DNA of 64,000 bases from Candidatus Doudnabacteria bacterium (GCA_023245895.1 JAHFJJ010000003.1:11343-75342); one strand, 5' to 3'; shown: positions 3,450 to 64,000, counted from the stretch's first letter. Notes: a model not told the origin generated them from the sequence alone. Made by a program: numbers and translations.

Positions 3450-4619
3450 ATGAATCCAATTGAAGAATTACTAACCAGAGGCGTAGAGGAAGTAATAGAC
3501 AAGGCTCATTTAGAGTCTTTATTAAAGTCTAAAAAAAAGCTTAGGATAAAACTCGGCATAGACCCAACTTCCCCCAATATCCATATTGGCAGGGCGGTTG
3601 CTTTGTGGAAACTTCGGGCGTTCCAAGAGCTTGGGCACCAGGTAATTTTTATTGTAGGCGACTTTACAGGGTTAATTGGCGATACCGCGGACAAAGATAG
3701 TGAGCGGCCAATGTTAAGCGAAGTCGAAATAAAGACAAATTTAAGAACTTACTTCAAGCAGGCCTTTAAAATTTTAGATCCTAAAAAAACAGAAACCCAT
3801 TATAATTCCAAGTGGCTGAAAAAATTAGGTTTTTTAGAAATCGGTAAAATGGCCAACTTATTTGGGCTCCACGAATTTGAATCCAGGGAGAACATTGCCA
3901 AGCGTATGAAAGCAGGTAAGAGAGTTTCTTTGCGCGAATTGCTCTACCCCATAATGCAGGGCTACGATTCAGTTGCCATAAAGGCAGATGTGGAACTTGG
4001 CGGAACGGACCAGCGCTTTAATTTTTTGGCAGGCAGGACTATTCAGCCGGCTTATGGACAACAGGGCCAGGACATTATAACCTTACAGCTTATGGAAGGC
4101 ACGGACGGCCGTAAAATGTCTTCTTCCTGGGGTAATGTAATTAACATTACGGACGAGCCTAACGACATGTTCGGCAAGGTAATGTCTATTACAGATGAGC
4201 TAATAAAAAAATATTTTGTGCTGGCAACTAGGGTGGATATTACGGAAATTGATGAAATTATGAAATTGCCGAACCCGCGTGACCAAAAAATTATCTTAGC
4301 CGAAAAATTAACAGGTCTTTACCATGGCGACAAAAAAGCTGCCGGCGCAAAGGAAGCTTTTATTTCTCAATTCAGTAAGGGTGAACTGCCGGAAGACATT
4401 GAAATTAAATTTTTGCCTTCAGGCTTCATACCAACAGTTTCAGTGACGACATCCTTTTTGGTTGGTATTAGTAAATCAGAGGCTAAGAGGCTGATGGATC
4501 AAGGTGGTTTAAAGATAGATTCTAAAGTGGTTAAGGAAGATAAAATAATCGAAGATATAGAGAAAGAGCATTTGCTTCAGGCAGGAAAAAGAAGATTTTT
4601 TAAATTCAAAAGAAAATAG
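3450..4619 (+). CDS. tyrS: Tyrosine--tRNA ligase (class I aaRS with C-terminal S4 domain)
   Basis: HIGH-type motif (PNIHIGRA), GGTDQ motif, KMSSS (KMSKS variant), C-terminal S4-like RNA-binding region. Confidence 0.8.
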   Translation: MNPIEELLTRGVEEVIDKAHLESLLKSKKKLRIKLGIDPTSPNIHIGRAVALWKLRAFQELGHQVIFIVGDFTGLIGDTADKDSERPMLSEVEIKTNLRTYFKQAFKILDPKKTETHYNSKWLKKLGFLEIGKMANLFGLHEFESRENIAKRMKAGKRVSLRELLYPIMQGYDSVAIKADVELGGTDQRFNFLAGRTIQPAYGQQGQDIITLQLMEGTDGRKMSSSWGNVINITDEPNDMFGKVMSITDELIKKYFVLATRVDITEIDEIMKLPNPRDQKIILAEKLTGLYHGDKKAAGAKEAFISQFSKGELPEDIEIKFLPSGFIPTVSVTTSFLVGISKSEAKRLMDQGGLKIDSKVVKEDKIIEDIEKEHLLQAGKRRFFKFKRK

Positions 4620-4660: not shown

Positions 4661-4902
4661 GCGTCTGATCAGCGTTATTATCCGCGAGTAATCGGCGGCT
4701 GTTACATTGCGGCATTCATACCTTCGCCGCCGTCTTTGCCATCTTCGTCGTCTGTAGCAGGGGCATCAGTTGCAGGGGCGTCGGCCGTTCCGCCGTCTGC
4801 GCCCATGCCGTCTTCGTCGTCAAAAAACATATATTTTATTTTTTAATGGTAAGCCTAAAAACTTATAAAAATTATATCAAGGGATATTTATAATGTCTAG
4901 CG

Positions 4903-4954
4903 TAGCGTGCCCATTTATGGGCGTCCTCATATCGCCGATAAATCGGCACGCTAC
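4903..4954. repeat. Family C ~52-bp structured palindromic repeat, copy 1 (outer stem gtagcgtgcc/ggcacgctac, inner hairpins gcccatttatgggc and gccgataaatcggc)
   Basis: Near-identical copies at 6151-6203 and, inverted, at 47428-47480. Confidence 0.8.
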
Positions 4955-5433
4955 ATCTTATATTTAGTAAAATAATGTCCGGCACACAGCGCAATGGCTA
5001 TTGCATCTGCCGCGTCGTCGGGTTTGGGAGGTGTTTTGAGCTTAAAAGTTTGCTGTACTACATATTGCACCTGTTTTTTTTCGGCCTTGCCATAGCCGCA
5101 AATAAAATTTTTAACTTGCAGGGGCGTGAATTCAAAAATAGGCAATTTATTTTTTTGGCAAACAAGCAGGGCTACTCCCCTGGCTTGGGACACAGTCATT
5201 ACGGTTTTTTGGTTGGTGGTTAAAAAAAGTTTTTCTACTCCCACAGCTTCGGGCTTGTATTTTTTTATCAGCTGATTAACATCTGCCGCTAAAATTTCCA
5301 AGCGTTCCGCGTCTGATAATTTTTTGTCAGTTGATATAACCCCAAAGTCAACCAGCTCCGGTTGGGTTTTTGTCTGCTTGATAATGCCGAATCCGGTTGT
5401 GGCGGTTCCGGGATCTATGCCGAGTATTATCAT
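4951..5433 (-). CDS. ruvC: Crossover junction endodeoxyribonuclease RuvC
   Basis: MIILGIDPGTATTGFGII... RNase H-fold RuvC N-terminus, ~160 aa. Confidence 0.85.
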   Translation of the reverse strand: MIILGIDPGTATTGFGIIKQTKTQPELVDFGVISTDKKLSDAERLEILAADVNQLIKKYKPEAVGVEKLFLTTNQKTVMTVSQARGVALLVCQKNKLPIFEFTPLQVKNFICGYGKAEKKQVQYVVQQTFKLKTPPKPDDAADAIAIALCAGHYFTKYKM

Positions 5434-6146
5434 AAGTTTGCCGATGTATGTACCGCTATTACATCTTCATCATTTTCCAATTCCGCGAATAAAGCGTCTA
5501 CTTTGGGTTTTTGTTCTTCTGTTAAGTCCGTTCCCTGTGAAGACTCTTTAATTACGTCTGCCTGGGCTATTTTGGCCCCAGCAGAGAGCAGGGCCTGTTT
5601 AATTTTATTTAAATCTTGCGGCTTGGTGTAGACTTCAAGCCCTTCTGCTGATTCACGCACGTCGTCAGCTCCGACATCAATCGCAGCCATTTCTATCGCG
5701 GGTAAATTACTATCGCGCTCAACTAAAATTTGCCCTTTAGTGTTAAATTGCCAGGCGACGCTCCCCTGCGCGCCTATGTTGCCGCCGTGCTCAGAAAATA
5801 TTTTGCGAATGTTATTAAATGTGCGGTTGCTGTTGTCGGTTATGGCTTCTATTAAAAAAGCTGTTGCAAAAGGTCCGTAGCCTTCGTATACGACTTCTTT
5901 AATGCCCGCGCCTTTTTCGCCCAGGGCAGACTTAATTGCCCGCTCAATGTTGTCATTGGGCATGCCTTGGTCTTTGGCGTAAACTATGGCGCTATTTAAC
6001 CTAAAGTTGGAAGAGGGGTCTCCGCTACCGCCTTCTTTTACGGCAATGGAAATTTTTTTGCTTAACTTGGAAAACAGCGCTCCCCGTTTTTGGTCAAGGA
6101 CGCCTTTGGTGCGTTTAATTTGTGACCATTTGCTGTGACCGCTCAT
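5430..6146 (-). CDS. yebC: YebC/PmpR family DNA-binding transcriptional regulator
   Basis: MSGHSKWSQIKRTKGVLDQKRGALFSKL... canonical YebC N-terminus. 4-bp overlap with ruvC start. Confidence 0.85.
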   Translation of the reverse strand: MSGHSKWSQIKRTKGVLDQKRGALFSKLSKKISIAVKEGGSGDPSSNFRLNSAIVYAKDQGMPNDNIERAIKSALGEKGAGIKEVVYEGYGPFATAFLIEAITDNSNRTFNNIRKIFSEHGGNIGAQGSVAWQFNTKGQILVERDSNLPAIEMAAIDVGADDVRESAEGLEVYTKPQDLNKIKQALLSAGAKIAQADVIKESSQGTDLTEEQKPKVDALFAELENDEDVIAVHTSANL

Positions 6147-6150
6147 AAGT

Positions 6151-6203
6151 GTAGCGTGCCCATTTATGGGCGTCCTTGTACCGCCGATAAATCGGCACGC
6201 TAC
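6151..6203. repeat. Family C structured palindromic repeat, copy 2
   Basis: gtagcgtgcccatttatgggcgtccttgtaccgccgataaatcggcacgctac, between yebC start and rsmI stop. Confidence 0.8.
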
Positions 6204-6211
6204 AAGAAGAC

Positions 6212-8239: not shown

Positions 8240-8929
8240 CTACTTTTCGTTTAAAATTGATTTTGCTAAATACATAAAAGGAATATCAATAATTCCAATG
8301 AGCCATTTGATTGTGGTTTGCCCGACGATGAGCCCAAAAATCGGAATTGCTCCGCCATAAAAAGCTATGGTAATAAATATCGCGCTGTCTAGAATCATTG
8401 AGGGAAGAGATGAGAAAACATTGCGCATCCACAAATGTTTGCCTTGGGTTTTATTTTTAAACCAGGCAAAAATATACGCATCCGCGTTTTCGCTAATTAA
8501 GAAAGCTATAAGGCTGGCAACTACAATCCTGGGCACCGAGCCAAGCACAGCTTCAAAAGCCGCCTGGTTTAAAAAGAACGGCGCGGGAGCGGTGTGAATG
8601 GCTAAATAAGAAAACACCACCAAAACAATTTGCGAGCAAAAGGCAATAAAAATCATCCTTTGGGTTTCAGCGCGGCCAAACCTTTCGTTTACAATATCTG
8701 TCAGCAAAAAAGTAACCGCAAAAATAAGCACCGCGGCCGGCGCGAAAATTTGGGTAAAGCCTAAATCAAACCGGATAATTTTGGAAGCTATAATATTGGC
8801 AAACAATATTAAAACAACATACAGCGCCACCAAAGCTTCGGAGCGCCCATAGCGTTTGGCATAAAAAGCGGCGGCTGAAGTTAAAAGCGAAACCATAACT
8901 GCCCAAAAAACAAACAATGAGAGTGTCAT
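8240..8929 (-). CDS. Queuosine precursor transporter (YhhQ/VUT family) - putative
   Basis: ~229-aa polytopic membrane protein. Pattern resembles the YhhQ/DUF165 family. Confidence 0.45.
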   Translation of the reverse strand: MTLSLFVFWAVMVSLLTSAAAFYAKRYGRSEALVALYVVLILFANIIASKIIRFDLGFTQIFAPAAVLIFAVTFLLTDIVNERFGRAETQRMIFIAFCSQIVLVVFSYLAIHTAPAPFFLNQAAFEAVLGSVPRIVVASLIAFLISENADAYIFAWFKNKTQGKHLWMRNVFSSLPSMILDSAIFITIAFYGGAIPIFGLIVGQTTIKWLIGIIDIPFMYLAKSILNEK

Positions 8930-9574: not shown

Positions 9575-9650
9575 GGGCGTGTAGCTCAGTTGGTAGAGCG
9601 GTCGTCTTATACACGACTGGTCGGGGGTCCGAGTCCCTCCACGCCCACCA
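9575..9650 (+). tRNA. tRNA-Ile (anticodon UAU), encoded CCA; atypical T-loop (C at position 55)
   Basis: Manual cloverleaf: acceptor gggcgtg/cacgccc, D-arm gctcagttggtagagc, anticodon stem gtcgt/acgac, loop cTTATac, T-arm ggggg-tccgagt-ccctc, CCA. Confidence 0.7.
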
Positions 9651-9696
9651 CTTCTTCGTCCGCCTGAGGCGGACTACGAAGTGCAAGCATCCAAAA

Positions 9697-20026: not shown

Positions 20027-20470
20027 ATATGTGAGTTAGTTGATTATTGTCAGCTACCCGCCTTCTCCGCCTGAGGCGGATTCGGCGGGTTGTTCTCTAT
20101 TATAAATAAATTAAAGTGAACAAAAAAACAAATCCTTAAAGAATTTGTTAACGTTGAACTAAGCCATTGAGTTGACTTTGTAAGTTTTGGTTGTAGGGCT
20201 GTGAGTTTGCTATTCTTTCCAACTCCTTAAAAAATTAATAATACACATAATTTACAGTAAAGTTTTTAATTTGTCAACCCGGTAGAATCACATTGCAATT
20301 TATTGTAGAGAGTTTTTAAAATATTGGCAAGTTTTAACTTATATTTTGTAGTTTTGTTTGAAATGTAGCTCTACCGGGTCAAATATTTATTCTGCAGAAG
20401 TTGTAATTTTGTCTTTTGGCCGGGGTAGATGCCATGGCTTTGGGTATTTTGCCGTCTGGCGGAGCAGTAG

Positions 20471-22318: not shown

Positions 22319-22389
22319 TAATTGAAATTATTCTTTTTAGTTTGCCCTTCGGCTTCGCTCAGGGCATAAAACTTGCTTCGCAAGTTCTA

Positions 22390-25004: not shown

Positions 25005-25191
25005 TTTAGATAATCGTACTCTTATAGTTTAGCGGGATTTTTTAAAAAAGCAAACCCTAGCCTTATTTCAAACAAAAAACACCTGCGATTAAGAGATGTT
25101 TTTTGTGGAGCGGCTAACCCCAGTAGAAGCCCTCGGATGCACTCGTGCTTTACGGGGCGCAGGGGGAAAAGTTCCCTTACCTTAATCAAGC

Positions 25192-25222
25192 AAAAAGCCT
25201 CCACTTCATGTGGAGGCTTTTT
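25192..25222 (-). terminator. Rho-independent terminator after tRNA-Gly
   Basis: aaaaagcctccacttcatgtggaggcttttt perfect hairpin. Confidence 0.6.
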
Positions 25223-25225
25223 GCT

Positions 25226-30587: not shown

Positions 30588-30593
30588 TCCTAA

Positions 30594-30630
30594 CAAGGGG
30601 AATCCTTGCGTAGCGCAAGGATTCCCCTTG
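30594..30630. repeat. Family D 37-bp perfect hairpin (caaggggaatccttgcg-tagc-gcaaggattccccttg), copy 1; also acts as the pyrD terminator
   Basis: Identical stem at 52725-52761. Confidence 0.75.
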
Positions 30631-30680
30631 TTTTTGGTACTAAGCTGTTATATAATTGATAGGCAAATTTAATATGTTAA

Positions 30681-30766
30681 GCCCGGGTGGCGAAATGGCA
30701 GACGCACTACCTTGAGGTGGTAGCGACCGCAAGGTCATGGGAGTTCGACTCTCCCCTCGGGCACCA
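30681..30766 (+). tRNA. tRNA-Leu (anticodon GAG), long variable arm, encoded CCA
   Basis: Acceptor gcccggg/ctcgggc, anticodon stem ctacc/ggtag, loop ttGAGgt, 15-nt variable arm, T-arm gggag-ttcgact-ctccc. Confidence 0.8.
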
Positions 30767-30980
30767 TGAACCAGTCGCTCACTGCGTTCACTCCGGTTCA
30801 TGGCACAGCCACGAACCGGGCAACCACGCTGTGAGTGATAATGGGCGACTGGTTCATGCAGTGTACCTGAGGCCCGCAAAGCGGGACGAATGGTTCACTG
30901 CTGTACGTGGCGCAGCCATGTGCGCGATAGAGTGATGAGTGCCCTGTACCTGAAGCCCGAAGGGGTGAATGGTTCAGGGC
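30767..30980 (+). repeat. tRNA-3'-adjacent structured element, copy 1 (long nested inverted repeats beginning tgaacca immediately after CCA)
   Basis: Shares ttcactccg(g)ttca..tcatggcac, gtgaatggttca and ccctgtacc motifs with the element 3' of tRNA-Ala(CGC) at 56811-56918 and with the partial copy at 63974-64000. Confidence 0.6.
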
Positions 30981-31004
30981 AGACAGACAATAAATTTTAT
31001 TTTT

Positions 31005-32957: not shown

Positions 32958-32964
32958 AAAAAGT

Positions 32965-33060
32965 GTGTCATTCCGAGCGAGTGCATCCGAGAGAGGAATC
33001 TCTTACATCCGATAATCCACCAGTGTTAAGGGATCCCTCGGCTGCACTCGGGATGACACA
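32965..33060. repeat. Family B MITE-like element with terminal inverted repeats gtgtcattccgagcgagtgcatccgag ... ctcggctgcactcgggatgacac, filling the rbfA-nrnA intergenic region
   Basis: Related copies at 60007-60112, 60632-60706 (inside a CDS) and 61575-61645. Confidence 0.75.
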
Positions 33061-47405: not shown

Positions 47406-47427
47406 GCCGATGATCTAACTTGAACCT

Positions 47428-47480
47428 GTAGCGTGCCGATTTATCGGTGACTTAAGGACGCCCATAAATGGGCACGCTAC
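47428..47480. repeat. Family C structured palindromic repeat, copy 3 (inverted orientation)
   Basis: gtagcgtgccgatttatcggtgacttaaggacgcccataaatgggcacgctac. Confidence 0.8.
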
Positions 47481-47559
47481 GCAGATGCCCTTCCCATAAG
47501 GAAGGGTTTTGTCATATATGGTATAAAATTCTCTAAATTGTTGACCAAAAGCTGTTTAT

Positions 47560-52719: not shown

Positions 52720-52724
52720 CCATA

Positions 52725-52761
52725 CAAGGGGAATCCTTGCGCAGCGCAAGGATTCCCCTTG
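52725..52761. repeat. Family D 37-bp perfect hairpin, copy 2, between permease and ATPase genes
   Basis: caaggggaatccttgcgcagcgcaaggattccccttg. Confidence 0.75.
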
Positions 52762-52773
52762 TAGATAAAGTAT

Positions 52774-55595: not shown

Positions 55596-56288
55596 TTAGG
55601 TTTTTTGATAGGCTAAAATTAAGTATTTGGGGACTTTCTTTTTTAGCCTACTTCCATATTGCTTTAAAAATTTGGGATTATAGTCTAAGTGGCTTTCAAG
55701 CCTTTTTTTAAAGCCTAAATTCTTAAATATTTTGTCGTAAGCTTTGGCGTCTCTAATGTAAATCGGCACTTGTTGTCCGCTCCCGCCGGCGCGGAAGTTC
55801 TTTTTTATATTTCTTACCTTTAGAATTTTAGGGTCATGGACGGCAAAAATTATCTGGCCGTTTTTTTCCATGCTTTGTGAGAGAGTTTTAAAGCAATTTT
55901 TTACATTTGGCACAAACTGGAAAACCATAATTCCGCAAATCAAGTCGAACTTTCCTTTTAAGCGGATGTCTGATAAAACTTTTTTTTCGTCGCCAACAAA
56001 AAATTGGACCTTTTTGCCTAAATGATGTTTGGCAACTTTTATCATTTTGGCCGAAACATCTACTCCCGCCGCCTCAAAGCCCATTTTAATAAGTTGCCCG
56101 CAAAACATTCCGGTGCCGCAACCGTATTCCAGGGCACGGGCGCCTTTTGTATTTTTAATGTGCTTTTTTATGTATTGTAAAAACACCGGCCAAACCGTGA
56201 GCACGTTGTCCATGGCTCCGGCATAGGCTTTCTTTTTGTAAGTATTAAATTTAGCGCTTACTTCGTCCCAGGCTTTTGCTGAGTCCAT
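55596..56288 (-). CDS. Class I SAM-dependent methyltransferase
   Basis: Motif I LEYGCGTGMF, motif post-I VDVS. Confidence 0.7.
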   Translation of the reverse strand: MDSAKAWDEVSAKFNTYKKKAYAGAMDNVLTVWPVFLQYIKKHIKNTKGARALEYGCGTGMFCGQLIKMGFEAAGVDVSAKMIKVAKHHLGKKVQFFVGDEKKVLSDIRLKGKFDLICGIMVFQFVPNVKNCFKTLSQSMEKNGQIIFAVHDPKILKVRNIKKNFRAGGSGQQVPIYIRDAKAYDKIFKNLGFKKRLESHLDYNPKFLKQYGSRLKKKVPKYLILAYQKT

Positions 56289-56526
56289 TGCTTTTAATCA
56301 GGCTAAGTTTTTGTAATCTTGATAATTTTTTTACCGCCGCTTCCCGGCTCAATGTTTTGCCCCAAGACCTAAACGGTTCAGAGTAAACTATTTTTCCGCC
56401 GCCCCTGCTCCTAACGTAGGCGGATCCTTTTCCCGAATTATGGACCAATTCCCGCGCTTTTAAATCTTTCGCGCTGCCGCAATAAAGTGTGCCGTCTTTG
56501 CATTTGAGGATATAGAAATAAAACAT
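56251..56526 (-). CDS. GIY-YIG nuclease family protein (YhbQ-like, stand-alone)
   Basis: FYFYILKCKDGTLYCGSAKDLKARELVHNSG is a GIY-YIG signature. Confidence 0.6.
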   Translation of the reverse strand: MFYFYILKCKDGTLYCGSAKDLKARELVHNSGKGSAYVRSRGGGKIVYSEPFRSWGKTLSREAAVKKLSRLQKLSLIKSNGLSKSLGRSKR

Positions 56527-56528
56527 GA

Positions 56529-56795
56529 TTAATATTTCAGAAATTCTTTAAGCATTTGTTTTAAAGTCACCTTACCTTTTGTTGTTTTGAAATACGCTTC
56601 TCTGCGTAAGGCGTCTTCCTTTGATCCAAAAGCCTCGTAGAATATCAGCTCGAGAGGCCTGCGATTTTTGGTTGATATATTTTTACCCTTATTATGGTCT
56701 ATAAATCGTTGTTTCAAATTATCAGAGTAGCCAATATAGAATAGCTTATCTTTAAGACTTCTGAGTATGTAAACGTAATGAAATTTTATAGTCAT
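56529..56795 (-). CDS. GIY-YIG nuclease family protein (second tandem copy)
   Basis: HYVYILRSLKDKLFYIGYSDNLKQRFIDHNKG. The ORF track extends to 56855 into the tRNA-adjacent element, so the MTIKF start at ~56795 is preferred. Confidence 0.55.
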   Translation of the reverse strand: MTIKFHYVYILRSLKDKLFYIGYSDNLKQRFIDHNKGKNISTKNRRPLELIFYEAFGSKEDALRREAYFKTTKGKVTLKQMLKEFLKY

Positions 56796-56810: not shown

Positions 56811-56918
56811 CAGCCCTGTACCAGTCGTCTGACTCCGGTACGGGGCATGAACCATTCACCCCACTTTCCATTAGCACGCTGGTGGCGTGCCATGAACCTG
56901 AACGGAGTGAATGGTTCA
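56811..56918 (-). repeat. tRNA-3'-adjacent structured element, copy 2 (3' of tRNA-Ala CGC)
   Basis: On the tRNA strand it begins tgaaccattcac immediately after CCA. Outer stem tgaaccattcac/gtgaatggttca. Shares motifs with 30767-30980. Confidence 0.6.
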
Positions 56919-56992
56919 TGGTGGACCTGGGGGGAATCGAACCCCCGCCTCGGCAATGCGAATGCCGCGTAATACCACTTTACTACAGGCCC
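56919..56992 (-). tRNA. tRNA-Ala (anticodon CGC), G3:U70 identity pair, encoded CCA
   Basis: Acceptor gggcctg/caggtcc with G3-U70, anticodon loop ttCGCat, T-arm ggggg-ttcgatt-ccccc. Confidence 0.8.
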
Positions 56993-57045
56993 AAACTTTA
57001 TAAATTTTACATTAAATAAGAATAAAGATAAAGGATAAAAACTTT

Positions 57046-57075
57046 ACTAGCATAGTGCGCGGCCGCGCACTATGC
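57046..57075. promoter_or_regulatory. 30-bp perfect palindrome tagcatagtgcgcggccgcgcactatgcta at the 3' end of the PaaX-like gene
   Basis: Perfect dyad containing gcggccgc. A related imperfect palindrome at 57616-57650 lies upstream of the same gene. Confidence 0.55.
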
Positions 57076-57606
57076 TAGTTGAAATTTTCGTTTTAAATCG
57101 GTATCGTCATCTAACTCATCTATTCTTGCTAAGTGTATAAACTCAATTAAACCGGTTTCTTTTAAGTACTCAACAGCCGCCCGGTTTAACGGATAGGGGC
57201 TGATAAAAACACTGGCCTGCCACTTAATAAAGTTATTTTCTTTTAGGAGCCTTCTGAGCTTGTCTCGTTTATCTTTGGCTTCTTCGGGGATATCAAATGC
57301 CGCCAACCTCCATTTATTGTCCCACTTACCTTTTTCCTTTCTCGACAAGTGCGCTTTTAAAAACAAGGTTTCCATCTCGCCTTTTTTAGTGAGTTCAATA
57401 AAATGCCTCCCGTGCTTACTAATTTTTTTTATTAACCCCCGGGCCTTCAGGTTGTGTAAGGTATCATAAATTTTTTTGCTCTTGTAATTTTTTAACTGCT
57501 CGCGCCTCCAAGAGTCAGAATACTCCAAAGGCCAGGTGAAAAACCCCGTAGCGTCGCCTATGGCACTTAGCAATACAGATGAAAATGTCCCGTACTTTTT
57601 TGACAT
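57070..57606 (-). CDS. PaaX-like transcriptional regulator (wHTH + Cas2-like fold domain) - putative
   Basis: WRLAAFDIPEEAKDKRDKLRRLLKENNFIKWQASVFI resembles the Cas2-like middle domain of PaaX-family proteins. Confidence 0.4.
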   Translation of the reverse strand: MSKKYGTFSSVLLSAIGDATGFFTWPLEYSDSWRREQLKNYKSKKIYDTLHNLKARGLIKKISKHGRHFIELTKKGEMETLFLKAHLSRKEKGKWDNKWRLAAFDIPEEAKDKRDKLRRLLKENNFIKWQASVFISPYPLNRAAVEYLKETGLIEFIHLARIDELDDDTDLKRKFQLA

Positions 57607-57797
57607 AAAATTTAATACTAGTATAACACGCGGCCGCGTATAATACTAGTAAGGTGGAGACTTTGTAAAAGGTTGTTTAACCGATATTTTATATTTTGGA
57701 TAACGGTGTTTGTTTTTATATATAAATTAAAGCACGCAAATTCCGGATGGAACTTGCGTGCTAGTATGTTCAGGCTGTTGCCTGAACGGGATTAAAA

Positions 57798-60006: not shown

Positions 60007-60112
60007 TGTCATTGCGAGGAGTCCCGCCCTTTTTGCATCAAAAGGACGGGACGACGAAGCAATCTCAAATTTATAGATTGCTTCGCTCGGATGCACTCGC
60101 TCGGAATGACAC
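60007..60112. repeat. Family B MITE-like element (TIRs tgtcattgcgag / ctcggaatgacaca with internal cgaagcaatct hairpin) in the rlmH / ligase-gene convergent spacer
   Basis: Read directly. Related to 32965-33060. Confidence 0.75.
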
Positions 60113-60117
60113 AAATA

Positions 60118-61476: not shown

Positions 61477-61574
61477 CGAGGTGCTTATTTGACAAAATGA
61501 TTAAATTATCATTTAAATAATGAAAAACTACTTAACAGCGTCTTTATTTAGACGCAAGTTCAAAAACCCTTAGT

Positions 61575-61645
61575 GTGTCATCCCGGCCGAGTGCATCCGA
61601 GAGTCGGGATCCAGTATATAAGCCAAGTTCTGGATCCCGGATATT
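61575..61645. repeat. Family B-related repeat (gtgtcatcccggccgagtgcatccgagagtcgggatccag + ggatccag...ctggatcc hairpin)
   Basis: Shares the gtgtcat...gagtgcatccgagag core with 32965-33060. Confidence 0.6.
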
Positions 61646-63973: not shown

Positions 63974-64000
63974 GAAGCTTTGGCCCTGTACCAGTCGTCT
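63974..64000. repeat. Partial third copy of the tRNA-adjacent element (ccctgtaccagtcgtct) truncated by the window edge
   Basis: Identical to 56815-56831. Same orientation as the tRNA-Ala(CGC) copy, which suggests a minus-strand tRNA just beyond the window. Confidence 0.5.

Follow-up and report, generated by a model that had tools for sequence, protein, structure and literature searches.

In a 64,000-nucleotide stretch of DNA from a Candidatus Doudnabacteria bacterium (the window, in what follows), a repeat built of nested hairpins begins at the base that directly follows the encoded CCA of tRNA genes. The repeat probably belongs, as its conserved hairpin module, to a selfish cassette that is site-specific and takes the position immediately behind the mature 3′ end of a stable RNA; the copy that was originally flagged, behind tRNA-Leu(GAG), is then a four-unit derivative without the gene of the cassette. 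There is good support for the identity of the flagged repeat. In several phyla, the exact junction recurs behind many tRNAs, transfer-messenger RNA (tmRNA) and RNase P RNA, the element is absent from orthologous sites, near-identical copies lie at two tRNAs of one genome, and units have multiplied locally. Furthermore, the module is oriented, it contains two helices with compensatory changes, and it is tightly linked, in both directions, to one subfamily of minimal GIY-YIG nucleases. The observation behind the original prediction is confirmed and its interpretation partly supported; what it had overlooked is the neighboring GIY-YIG gene, the occurrence behind tmRNA and RNase P RNA, and the fact that the tRNA-Leu(GAG) copy consists of several units.

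Copies of the repeat and their junction with stable RNAs

The general order of the cassette is a tRNA or tmRNA gene ending in CCA, hairpin 1, the dinucleotide TG, hairpin 2, a spacer of 15–50 nucleotides, and a gene for a GIY-YIG protein of 86–90 amino acids. The arms of hairpin 1 read TGAACCAnTC...GAnTGGTTCA and enclose the internal motif GGTTCAYGGCAC, and hairpin 2 has the consensus CCCTGTACC...GGTACAGGG. Every arm is a variant of a single word, (C)C(A/C)TG(A/T)ACC, or of its complement, the units meet at CA/TG boundaries (here and below a slash between CA and TG marks the boundary), and the stem of hairpin 1 reaches back into the tRNA, where C75 and A76 are paired with the TG behind the 3′ arm.

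The basic plan is seen in copy B, a full cassette on the minus strand that comprises hairpins (56918 to 56812) and a GIY-YIG gene. Its left boundary is tRNA-Ala(CGC) (56919–56992, minus strand, CCA encoded; ARAGORN and Rfam). Hairpin 1 (56848–56918) has a 15-base-pair outer stem (TGAACCATTCACTCC / GGGGTGAATGGTTCA) and carries the internal motif GGTTCATGGCAC; the dinucleotide TG separates it from hairpin 2 (56812–56847, TGCCCCGTACCGGAGTCAGACGACTGGTACAGGGCT), which reads CCCCGTACC...GGTACAGGG. The start codon of the nuclease gene (56529–56795, 88 amino acids, on the strand of the tRNA) lies 16 nucleotides past hairpin 2. A look-up of strain variants at copy B gave the same arrangement only.

Copy A (30767–30981, plus strand), the one originally flagged, consists of hairpins without a nuclease gene. 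Its left boundary is the last base, 30766, of tRNA-Leu(GAG) (30681–30766, plus strand, CCA encoded; ARAGORN, and 48 bits against the Rfam tRNA family), whose 3′ end reads ...GGGCACCA. The element predicted here is real, and it comprises four units and not one. Unit 1 (30767–30856) has the outer stem TGAACCAGTCGCTCAC / ...GGGCGACTGGTTCA and an interior that holds the motif GGTTCATGGCAC (30795–30806) and a small inner hairpin; it is defined by its fold, by covariation of the outer stem and by a covariance-model match (30764–30902, 98.9 bits, for a member of the training set). Unit 2 (30857–30902, TGCAGTGTACC...GGTTCACTGCT) is the second hairpin of the family. It is followed by a degenerate piece and spacer (30903–30939, CGTGGCGCAGCCATG), which resembles the internal motif and forms a local stem in the fold; comparison with two other loci, L055 and L034, suggests that it is a remnant of that motif. 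The last unit (30940–30981, TGCCCTGTACC...GGTTCAGGGCA) is of the hairpin 2 type and has a partial covariance-model match (30916–30981).

Of copy C, the window holds the distal end, from the second hairpin, at 63982–64000 on the minus strand; the copy begins at 63984 and shares an exact 17-mer with copy B. A third copy had indeed been predicted at this edge, although with a start at 63974 and not as the distal end of a minus-strand copy. In an overlapping public contig (L001) the element, again hairpins only, occupies 1083–1204 and directly abuts tRNA-Pro(CGG) at 1205–1278, so that all three window copies begin CCA/TGAACCA; for tRNA-Leu(GAG) and tRNA-Ala(CGC) this start at the very next base had been noted from the outset. 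The shared blocks named at that time, GTGAATGGTTCA, GGTTCATGGCAC and CCCTGTACCAGTCGTCT, are present as described, and the last of these, a 17-mer, occurs three times against 0.03 expected. Folding z-scores relative to shuffled sequence are −7.2 for copy A and −5.8 for copy B, and the two have a GC content of 55–59% against a background of about 40%. ARAGORN identifies ten tRNA genes in the window; all ten encode CCA, and the element is therefore not the source of the CCA. A palindrome scan and a covariance-model search found no further true copy in the 64 kb. One palindrome, at 8458–8571 (TAAACCAGGC...GCCTGGTTTA), was considered as an extra copy and rejected as a chance occurrence; it sits within a 229-amino-acid reading frame.

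Outside the window, a scan of a species-representative genome collection, with a pattern made of element motifs only and containing no tRNA sequence, returned nine loci, in Doudnabacteria, Saccharibacteria, Firestonebacteria and Omnitrophota. In six of the nine, the match starts at the very next base behind a tRNA CCA (Ala, Arg, Met, Lys, Asn and Thr); in another, that of Velamenicoccus archaeovorus (L022), it starts directly behind the RNase P RNA gene and three bases beyond the P1 stem. A metagenome scan with a pattern that omitted the 5′ end of the element as well as any tRNA sequence, returned ten loci, every one of them in an array starting ...CCA/TGAACCA; at eight, a predicted tRNA (in L026, a tmRNA) ends at the junction base, and the other two are cut by the end of the contig. 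Likewise, a covariance model built from 16 copies recovered copies that had not been used in training (L025, the first copy of L030, the second copy of L031, L054, L055, L052 and L024), all of them at such RNA ends, and gave no match in the remainder of the 235 kb or in the three empty loci searched. The junction is base-exact in about 25 loci from several phyla, almost always behind a tRNA, at two loci behind a tmRNA and once at the 3′ end of RNase P RNA. Copies elsewhere without tRNA linkage or compensatory changes had been named at the outset as what would speak against the prediction; those found are tRNA-linked and do carry such changes, in favor of it.

The proposal of a tRNA-targeting mobile element is supported by this exact junction across phyla, by the distribution and rearrangement of copies, and by the linked nuclease gene treated below. 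The pyrD/tRNA-Leu(GAG)/FMN-reductase neighbourhood is conserved in relatives (L045, L048 and L050; PyrD 63–73% identical), where tRNA-Leu(GAG) is without the element and, in L050, a plain terminator stands right after the CCA. Within one Doudnabacteria genome, the first 75 nucleotides of the element are identical behind tRNA-Ala(CGC) (L015) and tRNA-Arg(GCG) (L017). In L025, an extra hairpin unit of 37 nucleotides is nested within hairpin 2 and is absent from the orthologues, L031 and window copy C, and arrays of units occur in L028 and in copy A.

GC-rich hairpins are common after tRNA genes, tRNA 3′ ends are common integration sites, and two loci (L034 and L040) show a tRNA or tmRNA 3′ fragment ahead of the element. 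It could thus be asked whether intrinsic terminators, generic REP-like palindromes or attachment-site scars, lying near tRNA genes by chance, might account for the repeat. We regard such an account as highly improbable and already contradicted. Terminator scans show no T-run after the hairpins of copies A or B, which rules out an intrinsic terminator, and native terminators lie further downstream in copy C, L021, L025 and L031. The integration scar that had been suggested is not supported at the window copies, which show neither a duplicated tRNA 3′ end nor an integrase. No copies in the window lie away from stable-RNA ends, and the base-exactness of the junction in several phyla also argues against a chance association. 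Another origin of the junction was considered as well: template switching of complementary DNA onto tRNA 3′ ends would explain the tRNA, tmRNA and RNase P RNA ends, and was rejected, as homology would exist on one side only and the carrier tRNAs are native genes in conserved synteny. A scan of viral contigs gave 11 matches, all of them chance occurrences inside conserved phage genes.

Some further observations concern the flanks of individual copies. The same nine bases, ATTTTGCCG, precede the element in L016 (2328–2340; Saccharibacteria, no RNA gene) and in L022 (1821–1830), and this flank may have been carried along in a move. In L019 (1–800), a duplicated 3′ half of tRNA-Glu is fused to an element; in L054 (1160–1500), a 19-nucleotide duplicate of the tRNA-Met 3′ end lies ahead of it; and in L040 (260–330) and L034 (9760–9800), only the 3′ fragment of the tRNA or tmRNA is kept, that of L034 within a defence island.

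Fold, orientation and transcription

Comparison of the copies supports two helices by compensatory change. The outer stem of hairpin 1 is 12–21 base pairs long and also pairs C75 and A76. Across 19 distinct copies, 92.4% of its cells are paired and 8 pairs are changed on both sides; none of 500 shuffles was as good, and sliding the partner by 1–3 columns left 26–37% paired. Position 8 of this stem illustrates the point, with U:A in 7 copies, G:C in 6, C:G in 5 and G:U in 1. In hairpin 2 (18 copies), 89.4% of cells are paired and 6 pairs are changed on both sides. Unguided, RNAalifold predicts the same two helices on full-length copies, with A76 in the stem in 16 of 16 sequences, and finds no consistent structure inside hairpin 1, though GGTTCAYGGCAC(N)GCCA is conserved there as sequence. 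In addition, rare arm variants recur in each arm of one element: TAAACC with GGTTTA in L038, TGTACC with GGTACA in L052, CGAACC with GGTTCG in L055, and TGAACT with AGTTCA in L030.

Known RNA families do not describe this structure. At the gathering threshold, Rfam 15 reports only tRNA, tmRNA and RNase P RNA, and permissive scans of copies A and B give sub-threshold noise, so that neither level yields a family for the element; a sub-threshold match to permuted tmRNA reflects the tRNA acceptor and T arm only. Two specific functions were considered and set aside. Hairpin 1 as a mimic of an RNase P substrate is unsupported, the tail after the stem being UGCC and not NCCA and the stem pairing C75 and A76. 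A self-cleaving ribozyme at the junction is likewise unsupported: there is no Rfam match, the structure amounts to only two plain hairpins, and a tRNA would be ill served by a cyclic-phosphate end.

Despite its palindromic arms, the element is oriented, as the covariance model scores the sense strand at about 100 bits and the antisense strand at about 35 (for copy B, 56812–56921, 103.3 against 35.5 bits). Juxtapositions of G:T outnumber those of A:C by 13 to 3 in hairpin 1 and stand at 6:6 in hairpin 2. The excess in hairpin 1 provides modest evidence that the tRNA-sense strand is the folding strand, as RNA or as single-stranded DNA.

The element is likely to be co-transcribed with the tRNA. 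Between tRNA-Ala and the nuclease gene of copy B, the scans found no terminator and no usable promoter; the second hexamer of the sole promoter-like match falls within the reading frame, so that this match cannot serve the gene. Other copies lie upstream of the native terminator (the four loci named above) or between the tRNAs of an operon (L017, L018, L023 and L052), and this placement between the CCA and a native terminator or the next tRNA points to transcription from the tRNA promoter. The original prediction of a co-transcribed small RNA freed by RNase P or Z is thereby plausible as regards transcription, and only in that part.

These observations bear on a different account, in which the hairpins would act mainly as RNA, as a module that is at once a 3′ trailer and a 5′ leader and that gives a hitch-hiking nuclease gene the promoter of the tRNA. 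The stem that pairs C75 and A76 would direct an endonuclease to cut precisely behind the CCA, insulate the tRNA from the RNA downstream of it and shield the 5′ end of the message that follows. Hairpin-only copies would remain where the gene was lost, and the +1 position would reflect selection for tRNAs with correct 3′ ends and not a specificity of insertion. The element always lies in a transcribed region, its hairpins stand upstream of the gene only, the gene starts 16 nucleotides past hairpin 2 without a promoter of its own that could be used, and both the count of G:U-compatible over A:C pairs in hairpin 1 and the invariable inclusion of A76 in the stem are as this account would have it. 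It is also favored by other tRNAs of the window, which likewise begin a +1 hairpin that closes CA with a downstream TG. Against this, the arms are near-invariant across phyla (TGAACCA, TGGTTCA), beyond what a stem needs; units multiply without the gene, in the arrays of copy A and L028 and the nested unit of L025; few tRNAs per genome have the element and orthologous tRNAs manage without it; a strong +1 stem would hinder the usual exonucleolytic 3′ trimming; and no Rfam family or known ribozyme is matched. We consider a mainly RNA-level role the less likely explanation, but it is a real rival, and an RNA role and a selfish cassette are not mutually exclusive.

Several tRNA trailers of the window deserve mention in their own right. 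Those of tRNA-Ile (9651–9685, plus strand) and tRNA-Gly (25180–25225, minus strand) form a +1 hairpin in which C75 and A76 close with a downstream TG, the hairpin of tRNA-Gly being the terminator itself; such a hairpin may be a general trait of tRNA trailers in the source genome. The trailer of tRNA-Cys (22340–22389, minus strand) has, after the CCA, TAGAACTTGCGAAGCAAGTTTTA, TG and CCCTGAGCGAAGCCGAAGGGCA, the layout of the family (a CA-TG stem closure and then a CCCTG...GGGCA hairpin) in much shorter form, and may be a degenerate relative of it. The tRNA-Ile gene (9575–9650, plus strand) has the anticodon TAT; the usual bacterial tRNA-Ile that reads AUA has a CAT anticodon modified to lysidine.

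The linked GIY-YIG gene and a possible mode of action

The 88-amino-acid protein encoded behind copy B matches Pfam PF01541 (E 1.2e-18) and consists of the catalytic domain and nothing else. A GIY-YIG gene also follows the hairpins in L015 (where it is truncated), L020, L026 and L030, and stands beside them in L016 and L019. The link holds in the reverse direction: when six homologues of the protein were looked up in their contigs, the order of stable-RNA CCA, hairpins and gene was found at all six. A complete RNA gene lies upstream in four (tRNA-Gln in L037, tRNA-Lys in L038, tRNA-Met in L052 and tmRNA in L055), whereas the cassette of L054 stands behind the 19-nucleotide duplicate of the tRNA-Met 3′ end, 131 nucleotides beyond the complete tRNA, and that of L034 behind a tmRNA-like 3′ fragment only. 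Nothing is conserved downstream of the gene, and in three loci its reading frame runs into the next tRNA.

Homologues of the 88-amino-acid protein form at least 600 clusters at 90% identity, the best 120 of which are 63–85% identical. They are 86–90 amino acids long, and the tyrosines of GIY and YIG and conserved Arg, His and Glu, residues of the catalytic type, are invariant. The closest solved structures in a search of the PDB are the UPF0213 proteins 1zg2 and 1ywl (E 4e-8), and only UPF0213 structures were matched; a tblastn search of plasmids and phages with the nuclease returned distant UPF0213/YazA-type genes only, and no cassette.

Other small GIY-YIG genes were seen in the course of this work. 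A second one in the window (56251–56526, minus strand, 91 amino acids) starts 3 nucleotides after the first and is 31% identical to it; L015 has a close relative at 2028–2294, downstream of its cassette by about 1.2 kb. The second gene of the window may be a separate housekeeping or Ssn-like gene (Ssn nucleases are described below). In Bacillus and Enterococcus records from the plasmid search, yazA, a related gene for a small GIY-YIG protein, neighbors a gene for a tRNA methyltransferase (trmNF), and an older survey reports Slx1-like GIY-YIG domains fused to TrmH (PMC1564403). This adjacency and these fusions suggest a recurring link of the protein group to tRNA biology.

The presence of a nuclease gene beside tRNAs invites comparison with free-standing homing endonucleases of the phage T4 Seg type, which would cut a cassette-free tRNA gene and have the cassette copied in by repair; the hairpins would then be incidental features that serve self-protection or expression, and copies with hairpins alone would be cassettes that have decayed. 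Genes for tRNA and tmRNA are classic conserved homing targets, and T4 SegB, a GIY-YIG endonuclease, has its gene within a cluster of tRNA genes (PMC2330249). The identity of the nuclease subfamily over many unrelated contigs (the best 120 clusters cited above) and the truncated gene of L015 would fit as well. We nevertheless think homing quite unlikely. The whole length of the 86–90-amino-acid protein aligns to the catalytic domain and leaves no DNA-binding domain, which speaks against a homing endonuclease of the Seg or I-Tev kind; homing requires homology on two sides, so that moves among different tRNAs, tmRNA and RNase P RNA go unexplained; the conservation and covariation of the arms go far beyond those of incidental sequence; and hairpin units duplicate independently.

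For the selfish site-specific cassette that we favor, a guide to the mode of action is offered by the Ssn proteins, single-domain GIY-YIG proteins of about 94 amino acids that bind a hairpin repeat (NTS/SRM) encoded alongside and that cut single-stranded DNA just 5′ of this hairpin, but not double-stranded DNA or RNA (Chenal et al. 2025, PMC11893778). By analogy, we infer the following course. The cassette would be transcribed from the tRNA promoter, and its hairpins, folded on the tRNA-sense strand, would be the substrate recognized by the small nuclease. The nuclease would cut at the CA/TG boundaries of the units, much as Ssn cut single-stranded DNA beside NTS hairpins, and the nick, followed by repair or strand transfer, would allow units to reach further CCA ends and to enter units already present. 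Copies that consist of hairpins only would be either non-autonomous or cassettes that have lost the gene.

A number of points weigh against this reading. The role assigned to the nuclease on the hairpins comes from the analogy with Ssn, whose SRM pattern the arms of the cassette (TGAACCA and TGGTTCA, CCCTGTACC) do not fit, and the hairpins lie upstream of the gene only, with none downstream, unlike NTS-ssnA-NTS and two-ended transposons. GIY-YIG enzymes are not known to form a covalent intermediate, and a joining step would thus need host functions. No target duplication was found at the far end of the element. The flanks have only CCA (or CCG) in common, too little for site specificity. Among individual loci, L016 lacks an RNA gene though it carries hairpins and nuclease gene, L019 shows a rearrangement around tRNA-Glu, and the RNase P RNA case is a single locus (L022). 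Finally, a role at the RNA level would account just as well for the excess of G:T and for the transcribed position.

How the cassette might target the exact 3′ end of a stable RNA can be considered in light of what these ends share. The ends of tRNA, tmRNA and RNase P RNA all have a terminal stem and a tail of 3–4 nucleotides that ends in CCA or CCG, which points to recognition of a folded strand rather than of a linear sequence. In addition, the flank CCR together with the six bases that open the element has its complement in the internal motif GGTTCA-YGG, which has TGG where the flank is CCA and CGG where the flank is CCG (L016 and L022), with one exception, window copy C. This complementarity may bear on targeting in the manner of an IS608 guide, although the G:C case comes from one subfamily. 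It is tempting to see here a new class of site-specific mobile element, in which a minimal GIY-YIG nuclease, in place of a HUH, DDE or tyrosine/serine recombinase, and a nested-hairpin DNA module would insert exactly at mature stable-RNA 3′ ends (tRNA, tmRNA and RNase P RNA). The site would be recognized on the folded sense strand, by its stem and NCCR tail, and the pairing of GGTTCAYGG with CCR and the first six bases would act like a guide, possibly a reprogrammable one. In this full form the proposal is tentative, and we would call it possible rather than probable.

Other repeats of the window and comparison with known systems

Several repeats of the window lie outside the family described here. 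A separate palindromic family of 57–68 nucleotides has three copies (4899–4967, 6144–6204 and 47415–47487; AGCGTAGCGTGCCCATTTATGGGCG...GCCGATAAATCGGCACGCTACA). Two related 35-nucleotide, GC-cored palindromes (57045–57079 and 57616–57650; TACTAGCATAGTGCGCGGCCGCGCACTATGCTAGT) bracket a PaaX/Cas2-like gene (57070–57606), near-identical 39-nucleotide terminator hairpins (30593–30631 and 52724–52762; ACAAGGGGAATCCTTGCG.AGCGCAAGGATTCCCCTTGT) stand at two unrelated genes, and a 73-nucleotide inverted repeat (1703–1775 and 20054–20126) is 86% complementary, with arms 18 kb apart. A further repeat, GTGTCATTCC...GGAATC (32962–32995, 60083–60113 and 61572–61605), has ends like those of Neisseria dRS3/NTS (GTCATTCCC...GGGAAT) and no match to the published SRM pattern; a relative, GTCATTGCGAG...CTCGCAATGAC, lies at 3600–3690 in L050.

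If the cassette is as we propose, the tiny GIY-YIG proteins, mostly uncharacterized and large in number (at least 600 clusters at 90% identity), would gain a genomic context and a likely substrate, and the link between a minimal GIY-YIG nuclease and a hairpin repeat would extend to the candidate phyla radiation, Omnitrophota and Firestonebacteria. The target is the base after a mature stable-RNA 3′ end, a placement that we did not find described for elements of this kind; target specificity may depend on the structure of DNA or RNA. Should the nuclease cut single-stranded DNA at CA/TG beside a defined hairpin, it would be a candidate reagent, as proposed for Ssn. In annotation, GC-rich trailers of 100–215 nucleotides and small genes behind tRNAs can now be labeled, and the cassettes mark horizontal exchange among co-occurring groundwater lineages.

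No earlier account of a tRNA-linked cassette of hairpins and GIY-YIG gene was found in full-text searches of the literature, and it is informative to set it beside the systems that it most resembles. As in the Ssn systems, a GIY-YIG protein of about 90 amino acids that is all catalytic domain is encoded beside conserved hairpin repeats, and the repeats need both sequence and stem and are strand-asymmetric; the IS-like or REP-like origin proposed for the Ssn repeats (PMC11893778) is common ground with the cassette. However, the SRM pattern HGTCWY N0-2 YYVSBRH N0-5 WNVSBRG N0-2 RNCYNB has no match on either strand of the window, the elements included. Unlike the Ssn repeats, those of the cassette lie on one side of the gene and are few per genome rather than hundreds (three loci in the 64-kb window), and they are fixed to stable-RNA 3′ ends, whereas the Ssn paper makes no mention of tRNA (PMC11893778).

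The safe landing site provided by a structured or stable-RNA gene end is shared with group IIC introns, which use terminator hairpins, and with integrases of tRNA and tmRNA 3′ ends. In contrast to both, the cassette has no reverse transcriptase, intron RNA or integrase, and it inserts after the CCA, not within the tRNA, and without duplicating the tRNA end. As with T4 segB in its phage tRNA cluster (PMC2330249), a GIY-YIG gene of selfish type is lodged beside tRNA genes. Seg and I-Tev proteins, however, exceed 200 amino acids and have an added DNA-binding domain, whereas those of the cassette have 86–90 amino acids, and the hairpin module and base-exact junction have no counterpart in the Seg and I-Tev systems.

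Resemblance to the REP/BIME-RAYT and IS200/IS605 systems is seen in the imperfect palindromic units, which form clusters and nested arrays. Like IS200/IS605 elements and their hairpin-only derivatives, the cassette is inserted 3′ of a short sequence (CCA or CCG), without target duplication and in fixed orientation, and a stretch in its interior is able to pair with the flank together with its own end, in the way of the IS608 guide sequences. In contrast to IS200/IS605 and RAYT, there is no Y1/HUH transposase or TnpB among the precomputed Pfam matches of called genes in the look-up loci, and the only recurrent gene of the cassette is that of the GIY-YIG protein. Its targets are the ends of stable-RNA genes and not any occurrence of a tetranucleotide, as they would be for IS200/IS605, and its units start with TGAACC and lack the GTAG head of REP sequences. 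Thus, although it fails the sequence definitions of these families, the logic of the cassette resembles that of the Ssn/NTS and the REP/IS200-type systems.

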